Assembly: GCA_034667685.1 (NCBI GenBank)
Contig: JAXDQU010000093.1
Span: 1-10,115, forward strand
Source of the DNA: Thermoplasmata archaeon
Lineage (GTDB): Archaea; Thermoplasmatota; SW-10-69-26; JACQPN01; JAJPHT01
Direction of reading: 5' to 3'
DNA: 10,115 nucleotides
A model generated the notes under the pieces. The model did not search any database. It saw nothing but the letters and a program-made list of their open reading frames with translations, and was not told the origin of the DNA. Below, one piece after another: positions 1-7,428 of the stretch (its first letter is position 1; every line of letters begins with the position of its first letter). The position numbers and the translations under genes were made by a program.

Positions 1-63
1 TTGCCGCCATCACGCCAAGACGCCAACACGCCGCGTGTTGGCGTCTTGGCGTGATGGCGGCAA
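1..63. repeat. Perfect 30-bp inverted repeat (long hairpin/cruciform) with a 3-nt loop, built from degenerate 8-mers
   Basis: Bases 1-30 (ttgccgccatcacgccaagacgccaacacg) are the exact reverse complement of 34-63, with loop ccg at 31-33. The arms contain cacgccaa/gacgccaa/cacg units. The repeat may extend past the window start. Confidence 0.95.
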
Positions 64-77
64 GCGAAGCGCCACGC

Positions 78-97
78 AGAAAATGAAAAGAGAGAGA
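78..97 (-). terminator. Candidate archaeal-type pyrimidine/oligo-U terminator for the minus-strand cluster
   Basis: The minus strand reads TCTCTCTCTTTTCATTTTCT about 55 nt after the stop of the large surface-protein gene. Such a tract is conspicuous in GC-rich DNA, and the long hairpin follows it. Confidence 0.45.
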
Positions 98-151
98 CCT
101 CGCAGCCATGCAGCAGGTTGTGAAACAGGATCTAGGCGGGCGGGGCCGCCC

Positions 152-3100
152 TCAGGATCGTCGCGCGCGCCGCAGGACGAGCGCGAGCGCGGCCAGGCCC
201 GCCAGCACGAGCGCGGGCTCCGGCCCGGGCAGCAGGTGCGGCACGACCTTGGCGACGCTCTGCCCGAAGCTGGGATCGTAGACGACGGCGTTCTGCTGCG
301 TCGTGAGGATCTGGTTGCCCGCGAAGTCGCTGCCGCCGAGCACGAAGACGTACGTGCCGCGCGGGAGCGTCGCGGGCGCCTGCCACGAGACGACCCAGTG
401 GCCGTTCTGGTAGCCGACGTCGGGCTTGACGCTGCTCGCGCGTCCGTCGACCAGCAGCGCGACGCTCGGCTTGCCCTTGACGTCGTCGAGCAGCGCGTTG
501 GTGTTCTGATAGCGCGCGGTGAAGCTCGTCGTGAGGACCTGGCCCTCGCGGAGCGACTCGGTGGGGATCGGCGAGTCCCACTGCGCGAGGATCGTCGAGG
601 TGCGCAGGATGAAGGGGCGGCTCTGCGCGCTGATCTGGTTGCCATGGCGGTCCCCGCCCTTCATCGTGACGAGGTACGAGCCGGGCGGCGTCTGCGCGTC
701 GGTGACGAAGCGCGCGACGTAGCGCCCGGTGGTCGGGTTGACCGTGCTGGCCAGGAGCGTGACGCTCGTGGGATCGTGGCCGGCGAGCGAGCCCGAGGAG
801 GCGTCGCCGTTGGGGCCGTAGTAGGCGAGGCTGAACTGCGCGGACGTGTCGTCCTGGCCCACGGGCACCTCGACGACGATCAGGTCGCCGCGCACGTTGT
901 CGATGGGCGCGTCGGTCGCCACGCCGCGCGAGAAGGCGCCCGGCGCGAGCTTGAACGTGGAGGAGCGAAGCGTGGGGAAGCTGTCGCCCGCGACCGCGCT
1001 GCCGCTCATCTCGAACCAGTAGTCCGCGCCCGCGTCCGCGTCGGGGGGCGGGGGCCAGCTCGCGCTGAAGGTGAGCCCCTCGCGCGTGACCTGCGCGTCG
1101 GCGACGATGCCCGAGGCGTTGAAGACCGTGGCCTTCGGCGTCGCGGTGTCGAGGTAGAACTCGCCGTTGGGGTACGTGATGCCGAAGAGCGCGGTGGCGG
1201 CGCTGCCGCGGGCGACGGCGCGCGCGGGGTTGCCGATGATCTTGCCCGCCAGCTGCGTCGCCTGCACCTCGATGGGCGGCACGAGCACGTCGATGTGGTT
1301 GCCGCTGCGGTCCGCGCCCTCCAGGCGCAGCGAGTAGCGGCCGCTGGGCGCGTCGAAGGGCACGCCCCAGCTCGCATTGAAGAGCAGGTCCTCGCTCACC
1401 AGCGTGGGCGGCGGGACGGAGCTGGGCCGGCCCTCGTAGAGCACGGCGCGCCTGAAGATGATATCACCGGGCTGGCGCTCGAAGGAGAACGCGAACGACT
1501 CGCCCTTGGAGACGTTCTCGGGCGGGTCGACGAAGAAGATGCGGCCCACGTCCGCGGGCGTCACGGTGAAGTTGGCCGAGACGCCCACGACGGCGTGGCG
1601 GTCCTGCTGGCGCCCTTGGAGCACGAAGCGGTAGACGCCCACGTTCGTGTCGATGGTGATCGGGAAGAGGCCGAGGTGGTTGGGCTCCGAGTCGAGCTCC
1701 AGGACGTCGTCGGCCTTGCGCTCCCAGAGCTTGCCCACGGGGTCGAAGTAGTCGACGTGGATCGTGGGCAGCCCGGTCCCGTCGAGGCCCGTGTCGCCCA
1801 CGATGCCGTCGAAGACGACGCTGGCCGTGTCGCCGCGCTGGAGCGTGACGGGCGGCTGCGAGACGACGCCGCGCGGGCGCGCCGAGGCGAACGTGCGGAA
1901 CGGGTGCGAGACGCCGTCCGCCAGCAGCATGTTGCCGTCGCGGTCGCCGCCGCGCACGACGAAGACGAACGTCCCCTCGAAGAGGTCCACGGGGACCTGG
2001 TAGTCCACCGCGTACTGGTGATAGTCGCCGTTGTAGGGCGGCAGCAGCTTGGCGATGGGATCGCCCGTGGGCGCGCGCGTGACGGGGTCCCAGCGCATCA
2101 GGTAGACCGCGAGCGTGGGGCCCACGTCGACCGCGGCGCTGTCGTCGACGCTCTGGCGCAGGATCGAGAAGCGGAAGTGCGTCTTGTTGCCGATCTCGGC
2201 GTCGAAGGGCTGCGCCTCCTCGCGGAACTCCAGGGGCGAGCCGATGAACGTGCGGTTGAACGACGTGTGGTTGACGTTCGGCGGCGTGACGTTGTCCGCC
2301 ACGTCGAGCGCGAACGTCCACGCGCCCAGGGGCGAGTCGGTCTGGTTGGAGCGGATCGGGAGCGAGCCGTACCAGTGGCCGCTGTAGGGATCGCCCAGGA
2401 GCGTCACGGGCACCGTCGTGACCGCGCCCCCGTCGGTCGTGCGCTTCGTGACGAGCGCGGTGAGCGTGCGCGTGTGGCCGTCGGGGTTGGGCACCGCGGT
2501 GTTGTTGAACGGCGAGCCGTCGCCGTAGGAGACGTCCGCGTTGAGGAAGAGCGTGTCGTCCGCGCGCACGATCGGATCGCCGCGCGAGCCCTCGAAGACG
2601 GTGGAGAACGTCACGCGCGGCGAGCCCACGACGACCTGGAAGGGGATCGTCAGCGTGTTGGGCACGGTGTTGTTCCACGCGTCCTTGTCCTGCTGGAGGA
2701 CGAGCTTGTGCGCGCCCAGCGTCGCGTAGTCGCGGGCGTACTGATGGCGCGCGTGCCACACGCCGTCCTTGTAGGAGAGCGTGACGAGCTGGTCGCTGGA
2801 GGCCGAGGTGCAGTCGCCGCCGGTCTGCGCGTCGCGGATGAAGCAGCCCGTCAGCGGCGAGGCGTTCACCTTGTCGTCGAAGAGCTCCCCGTCGTGATAG
2901 CGGATCGCGAGCTGGACGTCCACCGGGTCGGTGCGCGCGACGCTGTCGAGCCCCTTGACGACCGAGACGTCGAGCGTCGCGGGCTGGAGCGTGTAGTTGG
3001 CGAGCGGGAAGGCGTCGACGACGTTGGAGTAGCGGTCGCGCGACTGCGAAAGCGCGAGCTGGTAGGCCACGAGCGAGCCGTTCGTCGCCGCGTCGCGCGG

Positions 3101-4270
3101 CGGCGTCCAGGTGCCCTGCCAGCGCTGCGTGTCGGGTTGGTACGCCAGAAGCACCTGCGCGACCGTCGCGGGCGTGGGCACGTCCTGGCGGATCACGTTC
3201 ACGCGCAGCACGTGCGTGCCGGTGAGCGGGTCCACGGGCACGCGCGCGTCCGTGAGCGGCACGCGGAAGCCCTGGTCGCCGCCCGGATAGGCGAGGAGGA
3301 CGCCCACCGTGACGTTCTGCGTGCGCTCCACGCGGGCATAGGGCGGCGTCGCCGCGGCCGCGGGCGCGGTGAAGACCTGCCCCTCGGACGTCAGGTGTGC
3401 GGGCGCCACCTGGAAGTCGACGGACTCGGCGTCCTTGCCCGTGCCGCTCGCGCTGACGCGATAGCAATGCACGAGGTCGCTCCCGCAGCCCGCGAAGTTC
3501 GCCGCCTCGTCGGGCGCGTAGCGGAAGCGGCAGAACTGCCCCGTCGTCTGCTTGACGCACGAGAATTCCTGGAGCGACACGGGCACGTAGCGCGACCCCT
3601 CGCGGCGCTCCACCGTGAGGTTGAGGCGCGCGCTGTCCGAGTAGCCGTACATGTGGATCTCGTGGTGCTCGCCGGGCGACACGGTCGCGTTGTCGCCCAC
3701 GAACGAGTCCTGGAGCCACGTGCCGAACCCGCGCTGCGGCTGGACCGCGCCGCGCACCACGTAGGCCGTCACGACCCACGTGCTGTTGTACGTCCCCGCA
3801 CCCTCGGCGCCCGCGGGCAGGCCCGTGGAGAGATCGGTGAACTGGTCGGGGAACACGAGCCGGTCGGCCACGTTGCCGTCCCACGTCCCCTCGAACGTGC
3901 GGCCCTCCGTGTCGCCGTTGACGTGCTTGCAGCGCGTCGCGCACTCCACGTCGAAGGTGATCGCGCCGTTCGTGTTCGCGTTGAGCGTCATCGCGACCCT
4001 CTCGCCCTCGAAATAGTTCGCCTCGTCGAGCTGCGCCGGCGAGCCCGCGCCCGGATTGAGCCCCGTGCTGGGACCGCTGCTCGACGCCGACGCGCTGGGG
4101 CAATCGTTCGCGGTGTCTCCCGGCCGCAGGTGATAGCCGTAGAAGCAGATCGCGTACGAAGGCTGCGTCGGGCTCCCCGACACCTGCGCCTCGCCCACCG
4201 GAGCCAAGGCTGGCGCGAGGAGCGTCAACGCGAGGAGGACGAACCCTCCGGTGCGGAGCCTGGCAACCAT
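152..4270 (-). CDS. Large secreted cell-surface (S-layer/adhesin-like) glycoprotein, 1372 aa, with tandem Ig-like beta domains and a C-terminal PGF-CTERM-like anchor
   Basis: ATG at 4270 gives signal peptide MVARLRTGGFVLLALTLLAPALAPVGEA; the upstream part of the listed ORF is a shadow of the CPBP gene. Recurrent motifs are Y-x-[DNG]-G (AYPGG, RYHDG, SYGDG, TYPNG) and D-x-x-[GSN]-N (DRYSN, DAWNN, DRDGN, DRSGN, DRHGN, DFAGN). There are many N-x-S/T sequons and several Cys in the N-terminal region. The C-terminus is PGPEPALVLAGLAALALVLRRARRS. Confidence 0.88.
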   Translation of the reverse strand: MVARLRTGGFVLLALTLLAPALAPVGEAQVSGSPTQPSYAICFYGYHLRPGDTANDCPSASASSSGPSTGLNPGAGSPAQLDEANYFEGERVAMTLNANTNGAITFDVECATRCKHVNGDTEGRTFEGTWDGNVADRLVFPDQFTDLSTGLPAGAEGAGTYNSTWVVTAYVVRGAVQPQRGFGTWLQDSFVGDNATVSPGEHHEIHMYGYSDSARLNLTVERREGSRYVPVSLQEFSCVKQTTGQFCRFRYAPDEAANFAGCGSDLVHCYRVSASGTGKDAESVDFQVAPAHLTSEGQVFTAPAAAATPPYARVERTQNVTVGVLLAYPGGDQGFRVPLTDARVPVDPLTGTHVLRVNVIRQDVPTPATVAQVLLAYQPDTQRWQGTWTPPRDAATNGSLVAYQLALSQSRDRYSNVVDAFPLANYTLQPATLDVSVVKGLDSVARTDPVDVQLAIRYHDGELFDDKVNASPLTGCFIRDAQTGGDCTSASSDQLVTLSYKDGVWHARHQYARDYATLGAHKLVLQQDKDAWNNTVPNTLTIPFQVVVGSPRVTFSTVFEGSRGDPIVRADDTLFLNADVSYGDGSPFNNTAVPNPDGHTRTLTALVTKRTTDGGAVTTVPVTLLGDPYSGHWYGSLPIRSNQTDSPLGAWTFALDVADNVTPPNVNHTSFNRTFIGSPLEFREEAQPFDAEIGNKTHFRFSILRQSVDDSAAVDVGPTLAVYLMRWDPVTRAPTGDPIAKLLPPYNGDYHQYAVDYQVPVDLFEGTFVFVVRGGDRDGNMLLADGVSHPFRTFASARPRGVVSQPPVTLQRGDTASVVFDGIVGDTGLDGTGLPTIHVDYFDPVGKLWERKADDVLELDSEPNHLGLFPITIDTNVGVYRFVLQGRQQDRHAVVGVSANFTVTPADVGRIFFVDPPENVSKGESFAFSFERQPGDIIFRRAVLYEGRPSSVPPPTLVSEDLLFNASWGVPFDAPSGRYSLRLEGADRSGNHIDVLVPPIEVQATQLAGKIIGNPARAVARGSAATALFGITYPNGEFYLDTATPKATVFNASGIVADAQVTREGLTFSASWPPPPDADAGADYWFEMSGSAVAGDSFPTLRSSTFKLAPGAFSRGVATDAPIDNVRGDLIVVEVPVGQDDTSAQFSLAYYGPNGDASSGSLAGHDPTSVTLLASTVNPTTGRYVARFVTDAQTPPGSYLVTMKGGDRHGNQISAQSRPFILRTSTILAQWDSPIPTESLREGQVLTTSFTARYQNTNALLDDVKGKPSVALLVDGRASSVKPDVGYQNGHWVVSWQAPATLPRGTYVFVLGGSDFAGNQILTTQQNAVVYDPSFGQSVAKVVPHLLPGPEPALVLAGLAALALVLRRARRS

Positions 4271-4299
4271 GGCTGGCGCTCGCTTCCGAACGACCGGAC

Positions 4300-5304
4300 T
4301 TAACCTTTGTTGTGCATGGTCGGACCGCGCCCCCGCCCCGCGAGGCGCCCCAGGTCGGCCCACAGGATCCGCACGGGCTCCCCGCGCGTGCGCACGAGGG
4401 CCCAGACGGAGAGCGCGCAGAGGGCCAGGAGGACCGCGCCCAGCGCGAGGGCGCCGGCCGTGCCGTGCGTGGCGACGTAGTCTGGCGCGACGCTGAGGCC
4501 CAGCGAGACGACGTCGACGCTCGCGTGCAGCACGGCGGTGACCCAGACGCCCAGGTGGCGGGCGACCCAGGCCATGCCGAGGCCGAAGGCGAAGGGGCCC
4601 ACGACGTGGCTCCACGTGCCGTAGCCGCTGTGGATCAGGCCGAAGGCGAGCGCCTGGAGGAGGGCGGCGGCGAGCCAGGGCATGCGCCTCGAGAGCCAGG
4701 TCAGAAGGACGCCGCGGAAGAGCATCTCCTCGCCGACGCCCGCGAGGGCCGATAGCAAAAGGACGAGCGGGATCGTGATGTTCTGCCAGTAGCGCGTCTC
4801 GTCGCCGTTCGCGGAGAGGGCGGCGAGGGCCGTCTGCTCCAGGAGGAGCGCCACGAGGTAGGCGGCGGCGATGAAGAGGAAGAGCGCGGCGCCGCGGGCG
4901 AGGTCGCGCCGCCACGTGGCGCGGGGGGCGAGGTCGTGGGCGGCGAGCGCGTCGCGCAGGGGCTCGCGGGGGGCGCGGCGCGAGGGGAACCCCGGCACGG
5001 CATTGTGCAGGATCAGGAGCCCGGCGAAGGGGAGGCCGACGTCGTAGACCGCGTCGAAGAGCGCCTGGCTCCAGAAGGCGGAGACGGGCGGCGCGGCGAG
5101 CACGGTGAAGTGGAAGAGGACGCCCGCGACGACGACGGTGCCGTAGAAGTCGAGCCCGAAGCGGACGAACGGCGTGAGGACGAGGCCGAGACCGATGGCC
5201 TGGATCCACGTCCACTCCTTGCGCCAGGCCATCGGGGCGAAGCCGCCCAGCCACGCGACCGCCAGCACGAGCAGGTCGTACTGGTCGCGCGTGAGCGGGG
5301 GCAT
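4300..5304 (-). CDS. CPBP family (type II CAAX/Abi, Rce1-like) intramembrane glutamic endopeptidase, 334 aa
   Basis: Polytopic membrane protein with the three family motifs EExxFR (GEEMLFRG), FxxxH (FGLIH) and HxxxD/N (HASVD). It starts 4 nt after the rpe stop. Confidence 0.92.
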   Translation of the reverse strand: MPPLTRDQYDLLVLAVAWLGGFAPMAWRKEWTWIQAIGLGLVLTPFVRFGLDFYGTVVVAGVLFHFTVLAAPPVSAFWSQALFDAVYDVGLPFAGLLILHNAVPGFPSRRAPREPLRDALAAHDLAPRATWRRDLARGAALFLFIAAAYLVALLLEQTALAALSANGDETRYWQNITIPLVLLLSALAGVGEEMLFRGVLLTWLSRRMPWLAAALLQALAFGLIHSGYGTWSHVVGPFAFGLGMAWVARHLGVWVTAVLHASVDVVSLGLSVAPDYVATHGTAGALALGAVLLALCALSVWALVRTRGEPVRILWADLGRLAGRGRGPTMHNKG

Positions 5305-6231: not shown

Positions 6232-6453
6232 CTACGGCGCAGCCGGGGCGGGCGTCGCCGGGCCCTGCAGGTGCGCGAGCTCGGGGAACCGGTTCTGCTG
6301 GAAGTAGCGCTCCAGCGCGATCTCGACGGTGTCGCTGATGCTCTGTCCCTTGAGCACCTTCAGGGTGTGGAGCTTGATGTGGTAGCCCACCGGGATCTTG
6401 ACCTTGATCTCCTTCCCGTGCTCCGCGCGTTGCCTCTCAGCCTCGATCATCAT
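6232..6453 (-). CDS. Small ribbon-helix-helix-like DNA-binding protein, 73 aa
   Basis: MMIEAERQRAEHGKEIKVKIPVGYHIKLHTLKVLKGQSISDTVEIALERYF shows an alternating beta strand (KEIKVKI), a helix, a G-x-S-I-S turn and a second helix, which is the RHH pattern. GGAGG lies upstream of ATG 6453. Confidence 0.72.
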   Translation of the reverse strand: MMIEAERQRAEHGKEIKVKIPVGYHIKLHTLKVLKGQSISDTVEIALERYFQQNRFPELAHLQGPATPAPAAP

Positions 6454-6534
6454 TTGCCTTCCCTCCAACCGGCTTGCACCGGCTGCAACGGCTCCACACG
6501 ATTGGACTGGAATATGAGTATCGTTTCGTGCGGA

Positions 6535-6552
6535 CTCTGGACATATCCAGAG
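6535..6552. promoter_or_regulatory. Palindromic operator candidate CTCTGGA-cata-TCCAGAG
   Basis: Perfect 7-bp inverted repeat with a 4-nt spacer in the relatively AT-rich region between two divergent regulator genes. The half-site CTCTGGA recurs at 6684-6690. Confidence 0.55.
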
Positions 6553-6597
6553 GTGCGGCCCAGGAGTTGACATTTTTCCGGATGCAGGGTCGAGGGT

Positions 6598-6607
6598 CCT
6601 TATAAGG
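6598..6607. promoter_or_regulatory. Palindromic TATA box candidate (ccTTATAAgg), usable in either direction
   Basis: TTATAA core matching the archaeal TATA consensus, located in the divergent intergenic region. Confidence 0.55.
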
Positions 6608-6654
6608 GGTGCAGCCGGCGGGTTCCAAGTGTTCCAGTTTCCCCCGTGCGGTCC

Positions 6655-6670
6655 AAGGAATGTTTTAGAA
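6655..6670 (+). promoter_or_regulatory. BRE/TATA-like element for a probably leaderless padR-like transcript
   Basis: Purine-rich AAGGAA followed by TTTTAGAA, ending about 25 nt before ATG 6695. Confidence 0.4.
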
Positions 6671-6694
6671 GAGGTGGCGCCCGCTCTGGAAGGG

Positions 6695-7231
6695 ATGGCC
6701 GAGGCGGGACCCAAGCTCCTCAAGGGGCTCCTGGAGGTGTTCGTCCTCGAGAGCCTCGACCAGCAGCCCAAGCACGGCTACGCCCTCCTCAAGGAGATCA
6801 CCGAGACCTTCGGCAGCGAGCCCAACCGGAACCGGCTCTATCCCCTGCTCGCGAAGATGGTGCGCGACGGATACATCCGCGAGGTCTCCGAGTCCGGCGG
6901 CAACCGCACGCTCTACGCCCTGACCGATACGGGACGCGAGGCGCTGCACGCCTACCGCCGCCTCCCCGGCGCGTTCCGGCACGCGCTGCGCCGCATCTGG
7001 AGCGTGGAGATCCCGCACGCGGCCGCGTCCGCGGCCGCGCCCCAACCCCAGCCCCAGCCCGGCGCCCTCCCCTACCCGTGCCCCGACGCCCGCGTCGCGA
7101 TGGAGAAGGACCCCACGAGCGGCGACCTGACGCTTCGGCTCACCGGCTGCCCCATGGGCGCGTACGCCTACTGCCCGCAATGCCCGGTCCACCAGGCGAT
7201 GGCGGGCGTGCGGAAGCTGATTCTCCCATAG
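6695..7231 (+). CDS. PadR family transcriptional regulator with a C-terminal four-cysteine domain, 178 aa
   Basis: PadR motifs LLKGLLEVFVLESL, PKHGYALLKEI, LYPLLAKMVRDGYI and RTLYALTDTGREAL are followed by an Ala/Pro/Gln linker and C-x22-C-x7-C-x2-C-P-V-H. ATG at 6695 is preferred as the start. Confidence 0.9.
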   Translation: MAEAGPKLLKGLLEVFVLESLDQQPKHGYALLKEITETFGSEPNRNRLYPLLAKMVRDGYIREVSESGGNRTLYALTDTGREALHAYRRLPGAFRHALRRIWSVEIPHAAASAAAPQPQPQPGALPYPCPDARVAMEKDPTSGDLTLRLTGCPMGAYAYCPQCPVHQAMAGVRKLILP

Positions 7232-7372
7232 CGCGGCGCGAAACGCGCGCTTCGCGCGCGGTCTCCGGCTCCGGCGCTTTCGCGCCGGGCCTGCGCGGCC
7301 GGACGCTTGTCCGGCCTATCCGCGCCCTTGCGCGGACGACACCGCGCCGCGCTAGCCGCGCCTCCGGCGCGG
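7229..7372. other. Multi-hairpin structured intergenic element (five-way junction plus one extra hairpin); candidate ncRNA or palindromic repeat element
   Basis: A 12-bp closing stem (7229-7240/7343-7354) encloses four perfect hairpins at 7244-7260, 7271-7288, 7297-7316 and 7319-7336. A fifth hairpin lies at 7356-7372. Confidence 0.7.
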
Positions 7373-7428
7373 ATCCTGAGAGGTCGTCGTCGAAAGCATC
7401 ATAGGCTGCGCTTCGCGATGCGGCGCAC

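Follow-up and report, generated by a model that had tools for sequence, protein, structure and literature searches.

Positions 7229-7376 of the window, the whole stretch of 10,115 nucleotides analysed here, probably hold a rearranged copy of a small non-autonomous, MITE-like mobile DNA element (probability about 0.6), and we favor this mobile repeat over a stand-alone new RNA gene. The element starts at the end of an ORF of 200 aa (6629-7231) that carries a PadR domain (E 7e-17) and is ended by TAG 7229-7231. The 489-aa ORF further downstream has a ferric-reductase match that is sub-threshold (19.2 bits, cut-off 28). The window copy is built from the following features.

7229..7231, plus strand: TAG, the present padR stop codon and the first bases of the element.
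7229..7240: 5' arm of the closing stem P1, TAGCGCGGCGCG, pairing with 7343-7354 over 12 nt (100% complementary); it acts as terminal inverted repeat of the shortened window copy.
7241..7243: junction AAA (AAA, AAU or AUC elsewhere in the family, according to the alignments).
7244..7260: P2, hairpin CGCGCGC-ttc-GCGCGCG, with a homologous arm in every copy.
7261..7295: P3, composed of GTCTCCG (7261-7267, the invariant 5' strand), a tip hairpin (7271-7288) and GCCTGCG (7289-7295, the first part of the invariant 3' strand).
7271..7288: tip hairpin of P3, CCGGCGC-tttc-GCGCCGG, variable among copies.
7296..7338: nested 43-nt insertion of two hairpins with a flanking CG/CG repeat.
7297..7316: first hairpin of the insertion, GGCCGGAC-gctt-GTCCGGCC.
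7319..7336: second hairpin of the insertion, TCCGCGC-cctt-GCGCGGA.
7339..7342: ACAC, the remainder of the invariant strand and the junction.
7343..7354: 3' arm of P1, CGCGCCGCGCTA, with CTA as its last bases.
7355..7376: fifth hairpin, CCGCGCC-tcc-GGCGCGG (7356-7372), outside P1, which together with ATCC fills this segment.
7377..7379, plus strand: TGA, the former padR stop codon, now 3' of the insert.

The six stems listed in the initial annotation are all present at their positions. Its start at 7229 is retained, while its end at 7372 falls short of the unit, which reaches 7376. The minimum-free-energy fold of the window copy is a five-way junction with the extra hairpin outside P1. With RNA parameters the plus strand reaches -106.4 kcal/mol, compared to -83.1 +/- 4.5 for shuffles (z -5.14; 0 of 200 as good), and the minus strand likewise beats all 200 shuffles (z -5.08). 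With DNA parameters the shuffles are again beaten on both strands (z -6.82 on plus, -6.67 on minus). Folding is indeed exceptional on either strand with both parameter sets. Every stem of the window copy is perfect, and its two strands fold equally well.

Homologous copies were found in the window genome (G000, a soil Thermoplasmata; other G numbers denote other genomes, C numbers contigs or the copies on them) and in its relatives. Model R1 gave nine matches in G000, eight clear copies and a degenerate one. Model R2 gave eight copies in G000, three in G002, two weak ones in G001 and one each in G007 and G008, placing the core in at least three genera, and no copies in the four remaining genomes of the family or in six genomes from other families of the order. 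As far as searched, the element is restricted to one family of soil Thermoplasmata. The suggestion of a dispersed, REP-like folding element stands, with 8-9 copies in the genome, more in relatives and compensatory changes among them. Copy numbers do not exceed nine per genome and stay below the about 100 or more by which REPs are recognized. The C62 copy matches window positions 7231-7295 at 64/65 nucleotides. The C2 copy is degenerate past P2 and was omitted from the alignments, and A3 and A4 also exclude the window and C76 copies because of their inserts. A match in G005 (29 bits) proved false, both invariant motifs being absent. A pattern scan of genome contigs matched at least 120 stretches. 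The 80 loci among them that were retrieved with their flanks were all fortuitous hits to GC-rich bacteria, none scoring above 25 bits with R1, and the scan is uninformative about distribution. In a corresponding scan of metagenomes 3 of 22 loci were real, all on G002's own contigs, and locus L221 is identical to the C113 copy of G002 over the compared stretches. All genomes are draft metagenome assemblies, where repeats and insertion sequences often go missing. A literature search on Thermoplasmata repeats returned nothing.

The common core of the family is a three-way junction of ~82 nt. Its arms are the closing stem of 12 bp, a hairpin that varies between copies, and an invariant helix that carries a variable tip. 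P1 covaries among the copies. Both sides have changed in 7 of 11 pairs, 94.5% are paired, and the covariation score was reached by none of 500 shuffles. In the model-fitted alignment both sides have changed in 15 of 30 pairs. Compensatory changes, on which the initial annotation had made its claim depend, are thus present. The helix GUCUCCG/CUGCGAC is invariant in all ten aligned copies, including two fixed mismatches (T.C and C.T oppositions) that read U.C and C.U on the plus strand and hence G.A and A.G on the minus strand. In P2, five of ten copies have a tandem UC/UC, which the minus strand reads as tandem GA within CGAG. Triloops are TNC on the plus strand, that is GNA on the minus strand, in 19 of 33 calls, and GNA on the plus strand in one. 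Folding with DNA parameters favors the minus strand in nine of ten copies, by a slight energy margin that vanishes in the window copy. Nearly all pairs in the core stems are perfect Watson-Crick pairs, and G.U is very rare. The idea that structure is selected on the minus strand is supported by the homologues (G.A mismatches, tandem GA, GNA loops) but not by the window copy, where both strands are equal.

Five arms instead of three result in the window copy from the nested 43-nt two-hairpin insert, which interrupts the invariant CTGCG|AC and is absent from all simple copies in the alignment. The first insert hairpin is a member of a 15-copy family, GGCCGRAC-N4-GTYCGGCC, another member of which lies inside the C76 copy. 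The complete two-hairpin unit recurs at C111:12603-12641 and C11:51702-51740. A five-way junction, as first described, is therefore not the native form of the family, which is three-armed, the two extra arms being the nested insertion. The conspicuous five arms thus arise because one small repeat is nested within another, which cautions against taking GC-rich hairpin clusters of this lineage, when seen in a single copy, for RNA genes.

No element is present at the padR site of G002, G003, G004, G007 and a ~91%-identical relative. In the latter (contig X12) 7221 is joined to 7375 and 7222-7374 are missing; the padR protein ends ..KLILP at TGA, in the context ..CTG ATC CTT CCC TGA GAGGTCG. This TGA is likewise kept in G003, directly ahead of GGTCGTCGTCGAAAG. 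Since contig X12 joins 7221 to 7375, the fifth hairpin belongs to the extra DNA. The right border of the extra DNA at the padR site reads ATCC|TGA, with no TA, which rules out a single TA-duplicating event for all of 7229-7376. As this boundary has no TA and the relative lacks all of 7222-7374, two nested events are needed. The fifth hairpin and ATCC are probably an older small insert. A hairpin resembling it, GCGCC-tcc-GGCGC, occurs within the C76 copy.

Full-length members measure 214 nt and fold as three branched domains, the middle one being the three-way-junction core. Their ends form a terminal inverted repeat of 11 bp (GTGCCGCTTCC / GGAAGCGGCAC), bordered by TA on either side. The 11-bp repeat is borne by the C113 and C97 copies of G002. 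In the long copies of G000 the terminal match spans only 5-9 nt, and the window core has the 12-bp P1 including TA; terminal inverted repeats as in MITEs are thus present. Two G002 copies are 210/214 identical, and their homology stops exactly at TA..TA, with unrelated flanks (36/60 and 28/60). TA is found on both sides in all three G002 copies, in the window core and in C109. It is absent or one-sided at C13, C106 (5' side), C62 (3' side), C76 and the G007 and G008 copies. None of the sites compared proved cleanly empty with just one TA. The element ends read TAGYGCC / GGCRCTA. The base before TAG is C in seven of nine copies, G in one and A in one. In G000 the dinucleotide TA is scarce (observed/expected 0.43) and CTAG scarcer still (768 observed, 9190 expected). 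In 8/8 copies that start with TAG, this triplet is in phase with an open reading frame upstream, and CTA terminates a convergent gene at C109, C76, C62 and C111. The element starts with G and ends with C, so that the junctions become TAG and CTA and the flanking genes retain a stop codon.

Insertion sites differ between relatives. The C111 site is empty in G003 (TGA-GCC-CTA), lacks the element in G002 and holds a different insert in G001. The C109 site is empty in G004 and carries a different palindromic insert in G003. The flanks of the relatives' copies map to G000 contigs that hold no copy at those places, and no copy was retained at the matching site in any other genome compared. Near-identical copies in unrelated flanks and filled and empty sites between relatives, both observed here, are what characterizes a MITE.

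Searches for known RNA families and mobilizing enzymes were also carried out. No Rfam family fits: the best match reached 20.7 bits (mir-1199, gathering score 80), and further best matches were naRNA4 (19.2, gathering score 59.5) and one to a long copy (15.3, gathering score 36). All lie below the gathering scores, in agreement with the earlier statement that no recognized RNA family is present. Hammerhead and hairpin ribozymes, k-turn, H/ACA and bulge-helix-bulge motifs were rejected by eye, as their required nucleotides are absent (CUGANGA is missing, ACA is not kept in subfamily II, and P1 is bulge-free). The Y1 HUH transposase PF01797 was detected in six control genomes and in none of the nine genomes of the family; the HUH/RAYT-type partner that had been suggested thus has no counterpart among them. 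PF00078 was likewise found in 0/9, and TnpB (PF07282), PF13358 and PF01548 each had no match in G000. DDE_3 (IS630) is absent from G000, and among the nine genomes only G002 carries one, which has its own 28-nt inverted repeat, unrelated to the element. In the DDE_3 partner test the element end motif gave no match allowing up to three mismatches. One IS4/5-type ORF of G000 (PF01609, C118) has no related ends. These searches found no autonomous partner with the same ends, as would accompany a MITE. Four of 13 sequencing runs were compared, all as contigs, which carry no strand, level or RNA-end information. RNA-run contigs cover only a relative without the element and give no support to the antisense transcript proposed initially.

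Missing TA flanks at several copies, the short terminal match of the long G000 copies, the right border without TA, the covarying and strand-biased interior, low copy numbers, the draft state of the assemblies and the failure to find a partner transposase with matching ends were counted against the MITE reading.

In the proposed history, the element would have settled on the TA of the padR stop, moved by a trans-acting, TA-duplicating transposase of IS630/Tc1-like type. The window copy retains the middle domain only; we infer that both side domains were lost, probably by deletion between GCGC microhomologies. The invariant helix has also taken up a two-hairpin unit from another small repeat family. 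The interior may be kept because folding is required of one strand (here the minus strand), either as single-stranded DNA or as RNA. A cut-and-paste element needs no covarying, strand-biased interior, and hence something else also acts on it. It seems unlikely that the core is more than a passenger structure and forms the active portion of a mobile element guided by structure, or of a structured RNA. This reading takes in the fixed G.A pairs, tandem GA and GNA loops of its bottom strand and includes persistence across several Thermoplasmata genera with complete site turnover and without a known transposase, HUH enzyme or reverse transcriptase in the nine genomes. If true, it would imply an unrecognized archaeal enzyme that recognizes a branched single strand.

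Two further explanations start from the conserved interior. The minus strand might fold and move as single-stranded DNA, in the manner of REP or IS200/IS605 elements, an HUH or structure-specific nuclease recognizing the mismatched helix and TA being a cleavage or target motif and not a duplication. Conservation of structure over sequence, stems that covary inside one genome, the one-strand bias of fixed G.A/A.G mismatches, tandem GA in CGAG and GNA triloops (19 versus 1), and the better minus-strand fold in 9/10 copies (DNA parameters) point in this direction. The conserved TAG at one end recalls the GTAG-tagged REPs of PMC3733652, which also describes CGTC-tagged REPs without a dedicated transposase, and in DNA the d(GNA) and GCGNAGC mini-hairpins have unusual stability (PMC3201870, PMC13037366). 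We still regard this as quite unlikely: PF01797 is missing from all nine family genomes while the controls are positive, TnpB is missing from G000, the tag is CTAG in 7/9 copies and GTAG in only 1/9, the energy advantage is slight and vanishes in the window copy, and intact copies possess a true 11-bp inverted repeat bordered by TA at both ends, features that are missing from IS200/REP elements. The same covariation and invariant junction and mismatch nucleotides are also the usual signature of structured RNA, and such RNAs typically have purine-rich GNA/GAAA loops and G.A pairs, as the minus strand does here. The core could then be a functional RNA, either a 3' UTR part (e.g. a block of 3'-5' decay) or a minus-strand small RNA, spread by a mobile carrier only secondarily. 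It is kept across at least three genera, and copies directly 3' of stop codons would be transcribed, on both strands at convergent gene pairs. We consider this improbable, as no copy is retained at an orthologous site in the other genomes compared, the top Rfam score is 20.7 bits where the gathering score is 80, core stems are nearly all Watson-Crick with very few G.U, no AT-rich promoter-like stretch for the minus strand is visible by eye, the insert splits the invariant helix of the window copy, and the RNA-run contigs, covering only a relative without the element, contain no transcript of it.

A recombination scar would account for the padR site in another way: a foreign allele of the padR 3' end with a hairpin-bearing flank would have recombined ahead of the native end. 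The persistence of the old TGA downstream and the imperfect short repeat GATTCT / GATCCT that brackets the extra DNA agree with this, as do the stops next to C109 and C111, which are TAG versus TGA in the orthologues with no old stop left alongside. Nevertheless, a duplicated gene end is not visible beyond 6 nt, the same element lies beside unrelated genes with sharp homology borders, and G002 copies are bounded by an inverted repeat and by TA at either end. We consider a scar very improbable. A rearranged MITE-like element remains our preferred reading.

Several known repeat systems can be compared with this element. REPs are 20-40-bp imperfect palindromes tagged GTAG (or CGTC), as defined in PMC3733652. 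REP, REPIN and BIME elements, also the subject of PMC3116915 and PMC2817692, share with it GC-rich extragenic hairpins at gene ends, a mosaic of modules, structure kept above sequence and a short tag (here TAG) at one end, and BIMEs also nested and composite forms. The element differs in lacking a RAYT (0/9 genomes), in its tag CTAG instead of GTAG, in its archaeal host and in its size, branching and number (82-214 nt, branched, nine copies or fewer, against 20-40-bp hairpins in hundreds). It is also unlike IS200/IS605-derived PATEs, with no PF07282 in G000 and PF01797 in 0/9 genomes. Pneumococcal BOX and Neisseria Correia elements are modular structured repeats. They are likewise modular, stably folded, gene-adjacent and able to change gene ends or transcripts; they are not known to be related to the element in sequence. 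Integron attC sites have the core sites RYYYAAC / GTTRRRY and form cassette arrays next to an integrase. They resemble the element in lying just 3' of a stop codon, in conserving structure and not sequence, and in having informative unpaired bases on a single strand, the bottom one as seen from the upstream gene. The element, however, ends in TAGYGCC / GGCRCTA without RYYYAAC / GTTRRRY and occurs as single copies on different contigs, not in arrays.

TA-duplicating MITEs are among the closest counterparts. The pneumococcal RUP is a prokaryotic MITE with TA target duplication, derived from IS630 / Tc1-mariner elements. IS630, as Tenzen et al. are said to have found in 1990, prefers CTAG and duplicates TA; a literature search on the IS630 target returned nothing usable. 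Like such MITEs, the element is small, non-coding and intergenic, has an inverted repeat and TA in intact copies, and occurs as near-identical copies in unrelated flanks, present or absent between relatives. Unlike the case for them, no partner transposase with matching ends was found for it, many of its copies are truncated or without TA flanks, and it has a conserved branched interior with covarying stems and strand-specific mismatches. It would thus be an archaeal example of a miniature element settling on the TA of stop codons, a dinucleotide that is rare in this genome of 71% GC. With its G...C ends it would restore TAG on each strand, so that tightly packed or overlapping convergent genes survive its insertion. 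The covarying, strand-biased, branched interior is kept without a visible partner enzyme; if it has a role, it would point to an unrecognized mobilizing or RNA-binding factor in uncultured soil Thermoplasmata.

The element downstream of padR (window 7229-7376) is real and strongly structured, and the best reading is that it is a rearranged member of a MITE-like family, new and low in copy number, from soil Thermoplasmata. As described in the initial annotation for window 7229-7372, five hairpins with perfect 7-8-bp stems are present, and a five-way junction with one following hairpin is the minimum-free-energy fold. The two 12-nt arms of the closing stem (P1) were found to be 100% complementary by a repeat finder. 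The fold is exceptional, with an RNA energy of -106.4 kcal/mol vs -83.1 +/- 4.5 for 200 dinucleotide shuffles (z -5.14; reverse strand, z -5.08). DNA parameters gave z -6.8 on the + strand and -6.7 on the - strand. In an Rfam search of the element every family stayed far below its gathering score.

6629-7231, + strand: upstream ORF with a PadR domain (E 7e-17)
7229-7240, + strand: P1 5' arm, TAGCGCGGCGCG
7343-7354, + strand: P1 3' arm, CGCGCCGCGCTA

The 489-aa ORF downstream of the element yielded a sub-threshold ferric-reductase match and no other. Past its PadR domain, padR carries a Cys-rich C-terminal extension (window 7075-7228; ..YPCPD...LTGCPMGAYAYCPQCPVHQ..), which aligns in relatives as well and looks like a conserved zinc-ribbon-like tail. 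Just upstream of padR, window 6300-6750 has a GC content of 58-59% vs ~70% elsewhere and may be a shared promoter region. A very long open frame of 1433 aa (window 2-4303) runs off the contig start and had no Pfam matches at E <= 0.01. The host genome (G000; 3.48 Mb, 71% GC, 124 contigs, of which the window is one entire contig) carries an archaeal SSU rRNA (1498 bits) and an archaeal RNase P RNA. The best DNA matches among sequencing runs came from soil metagenomes.

A DNA search of G000 located window 7231-7295 again on contig C62 at 98% identity. In C62 and C109 this match runs directly into the P1 3' arm, and the basic form therefore has three arms instead of five. Relative to every simple copy, the window carries 43 nt (7296-7338) that split the invariant CTGCG|AC, with a CG repeat on either side. 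The first hairpin of this insert (7297-7316) belongs to a GGCCGRAC-N4-GTYCGGCC family with 15 copies in the genome, which is also found inside the C76 copy (C76:26885-26904); both composite copies have thus been invaded. The two-hairpin unit of the insert was found again at C111:12603-12641 and C11:51702-51740. Since sequence of another repeat family interrupts the core, the proposed five-way junction is a nested composite. The window copy is probably disabled if recognition depends on the invariant helix. In many copies of the GGCCGRAC-N4-GTYCGGCC family the lower stem covaries and the internal loop is CAC/TA.

The dispersed, structured paralogs that the homologue search proposed in the initial annotation was to reveal do exist. 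A covariance model (R1) built on six simple copies (alignment A1) found nine in G000: C109, C62, C111, C106, C13, C64, the window, C76, which bears extra hairpins, and C2, which is degenerate. A second model (R2), built on ten copies of both subfamilies (alignment A4), matched 8 in G000, 3 in G002, one each in G007 and G008, and 2 weakly in G001 (38 and 36 bits), all genomes of the same taxonomic family. R2 found no copy in four other genomes of this family or in six genomes of the order's other families, and an earlier, stricter model run, which covered 61 genomes and reached phylum level, gave matches in this family only. The genomes are 72-100% complete drafts in which 150 of 6,000 to 18,000 first-look candidates were scored per genome, so that absence means not found in those searched. 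A separate palindromic repeat of ~80 nt, CCAGCCACAGAGGACACAGAGG...CCTCTGTGTCCTCTGTGGCTGG, is far commoner, with 59 loci in G000 (106 BLAST pieces; for example C111:4685-4764, L039:1582-1661).

The core reads, on the + strand from 5' to 3':
P1 5' arm (11-12 bp)
AAA, AAU or AUC
P2 hairpin
P3: GUCU(C/U)CG, variable tip hairpin, CUGCGAC
AC or CC
P1 3' arm

P1 pairing is strongly supported. When ten copies were aligned with plain MAFFT, 94.5% of P1 cells paired, and both sides changed in 7 of 11 pairs. The covariation score was equalled by 0 of 500 shuffles and was 0.45 vs <= 0.17 in slid controls. A model-fitted alignment, which leans toward structure, gave changes on both sides in 15 of 30 pairs. 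Even inside one genome P1 varies (GCGCGCGGCGCG, CCGCCCGGCGCG, GCGCCGGCCGCG), each sequence with its own matching partner, which argues that pairing is kept rather than a protein-binding sequence. The lower P3 helix is invariant and includes two fixed oppositions, T.C and C.T, in 10/10 copies.

The initial annotation had placed selection for structure on the minus strand. There the fixed P3 oppositions read G.A and A.G. P2 is GCTCGC-loop-GCTCGC on the + strand in 5/10 copies (G008 diverges in the 3' arm), which gives GCGAGC-loop-GCGAGC on the minus strand, a 6-bp stem with tandem GA in CGAG context. This motif also makes up the conserved 3' tail GCTCGC-TTC-GCTCGC of C109, C111, G007 and C76 (TAC loop) and lies within P1 of two G002 copies. 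Among 33 triloop calls in or just beside the copies (stems >= 5 bp; non-independent, homologous hairpins being counted once per copy), 19 were TNC and one was GNA on the + strand. The 19 read GAA (13), GGA (4), GCA (1) and GTA (1) on the minus strand. Loops of the d(GNA) type and GCGNAGC mini-hairpins have been described as unusually stable (PMC3201870, PMC13037366). The minus strand folded better in 9/10 copies with DNA parameters (margin 0.1 to 7.2 kcal/mol) and in 6/10 with RNA parameters. A single T.G wobble, conserved within the 5' domain, favours the opposite, + strand. Because of the G.A oppositions, tandem GA, GNA triloops and minus-strand folding, the strand assignment holds for the family; it does not extend to the window copy, where all stems are perfect and both strands fold equally.

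The whole element was seen in three G002 copies, in the following order:
TA, GTGCCGCTTCC, 5' hairpin domain, core, 3' two-hairpin domain, GGAAGCGGCAC, TA

Between two of them 210/214 positions agree, and homology ends at the TAs; their flanks gave 36/60 and 28/60 in a forced global alignment and are unrelated. The long G000 copies (C109, C111, C62, C64, C76) share the 5' domain TAGCGCCGCTCC... and a tail hairpin and are without most of the 3' repeat. C106 retains GGCTCCGGCGC-TA at its 3' end, which mirrors the 5' consensus. Site-by-site comparison with relatives found no copies at orthologous sites. At the C111 site G003 is empty (TGA-GCC-CTA), G002 lacks the element, and G001 has an unrelated insert (contig C100, ~4176-4346) flanked by 16-nt direct repeats, CGTCGTCCGCGTACTG. 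For C109, G004 has an empty site and G003 one occupied by another palindrome. Synteny at the C62 site is limited to the convergent gene, and the models match there in no relative. When the sequences flanking the relatives' copies were placed on G000, they fell on contigs C34, C21, C119 and C63 (one is unmatched), and no copy is present at these places. The padR spacers of G002, G003, G004 and G007 hold other sequences, three of them different palindromic inserts. This spacer is an insertion hot spot, with a different palindromic insert per relative: GGGGGTTTCAGGGGG... in G003, GGGTTCC repeats in G004, and in G002 an insert with an 18-nt direct repeat on either side.

A relative with ~91% identity is represented by a 159-nt contig, which belongs to a root-metagenome RNA library. 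In this contig window position 7221 is linked to 7375 through CCTTC; it reads ..AAG CTG ATC CTT CCC TGA GAGGTCG, the protein end being KLILP as in the window, followed by TGA. The window retains TGA at 7377-7379, preceded by 148 nt beginning with TAG, and G003 likewise has TGA immediately before the conserved GGTCGTCGTCGAAAG. TA stands on either side of the core (7231-7352) but not of the 148-nt block. The simplest history is a two-step insertion, in which a 24-nt TAG-hairpin unit (now 7353-7376) would have entered ahead of TGA and the core then the TA of the newly made TAG. The window and C62 cores are 64/65 identical, with P1 ends of TA/TA in the window and GC/GC in C62. If the 5' and 3' side domains of C62 are removed between GCGC microhomologies, the result matches the window's TAGCGCGGCGCG exactly and comes close to its 3' end. 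Judged from this sequence comparison, the window copy may derive from a C62-like form by loss of both side domains via these microhomologies.

Nine copies start with TAG (C109, C111, C62, C64, the window, three in G002 and one in G007); C76 begins with TTG instead. In all eight tested (the nine minus G007) TAG is in frame with at least 80 open upstream codons. Orthologue alignments, which back the TAG stop for C109, C111, the window and G002 C8, are firmer support, as other frames are also long in GC-rich DNA. At C109, C76, C62 and C111 the convergent gene ends at CTA in or at the 3' tail. TA is depleted in G000 (observed/expected 0.43), and CTAG is nearly absent (768 observed vs 9190 expected from base composition). 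G...C ends between TA would rebuild TAG on either strand, and this could permit insertion on, or in the gap separating, the stops of those convergent genes that in relatives lie 3 nt apart.

The REP-like alternative called for an HUH/RAYT partner, and a Y1 HUH transposase was found in 0/9 genomes searched. Reverse transcriptase was likewise found in 0/9, and searches for TnpB and IS110 gave 0 in G000. Such assemblies often lose insertion sequences. G000 has one IS4/5-type ORF, which showed no related ends. IS630-type DDE_3 occurred in G002 only, with an unrelated 28-nt inverted repeat. Contig C318 (L240:1376-2492) there carries an IS630-like insertion sequence (DDE_3, 94 bits, two overlapping ORFs) whose imperfect terminal inverted repeat has TA at both ends; these ends are unrelated to the studied family. 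The element stands outside REP/RAYT, IS200-derived elements, attC sites and all Rfam families. What remains odd, and what the case for a novel role rests on, is a three-way junction that covaries, shows a strand bias and has been kept in different genera with no visible enzyme.
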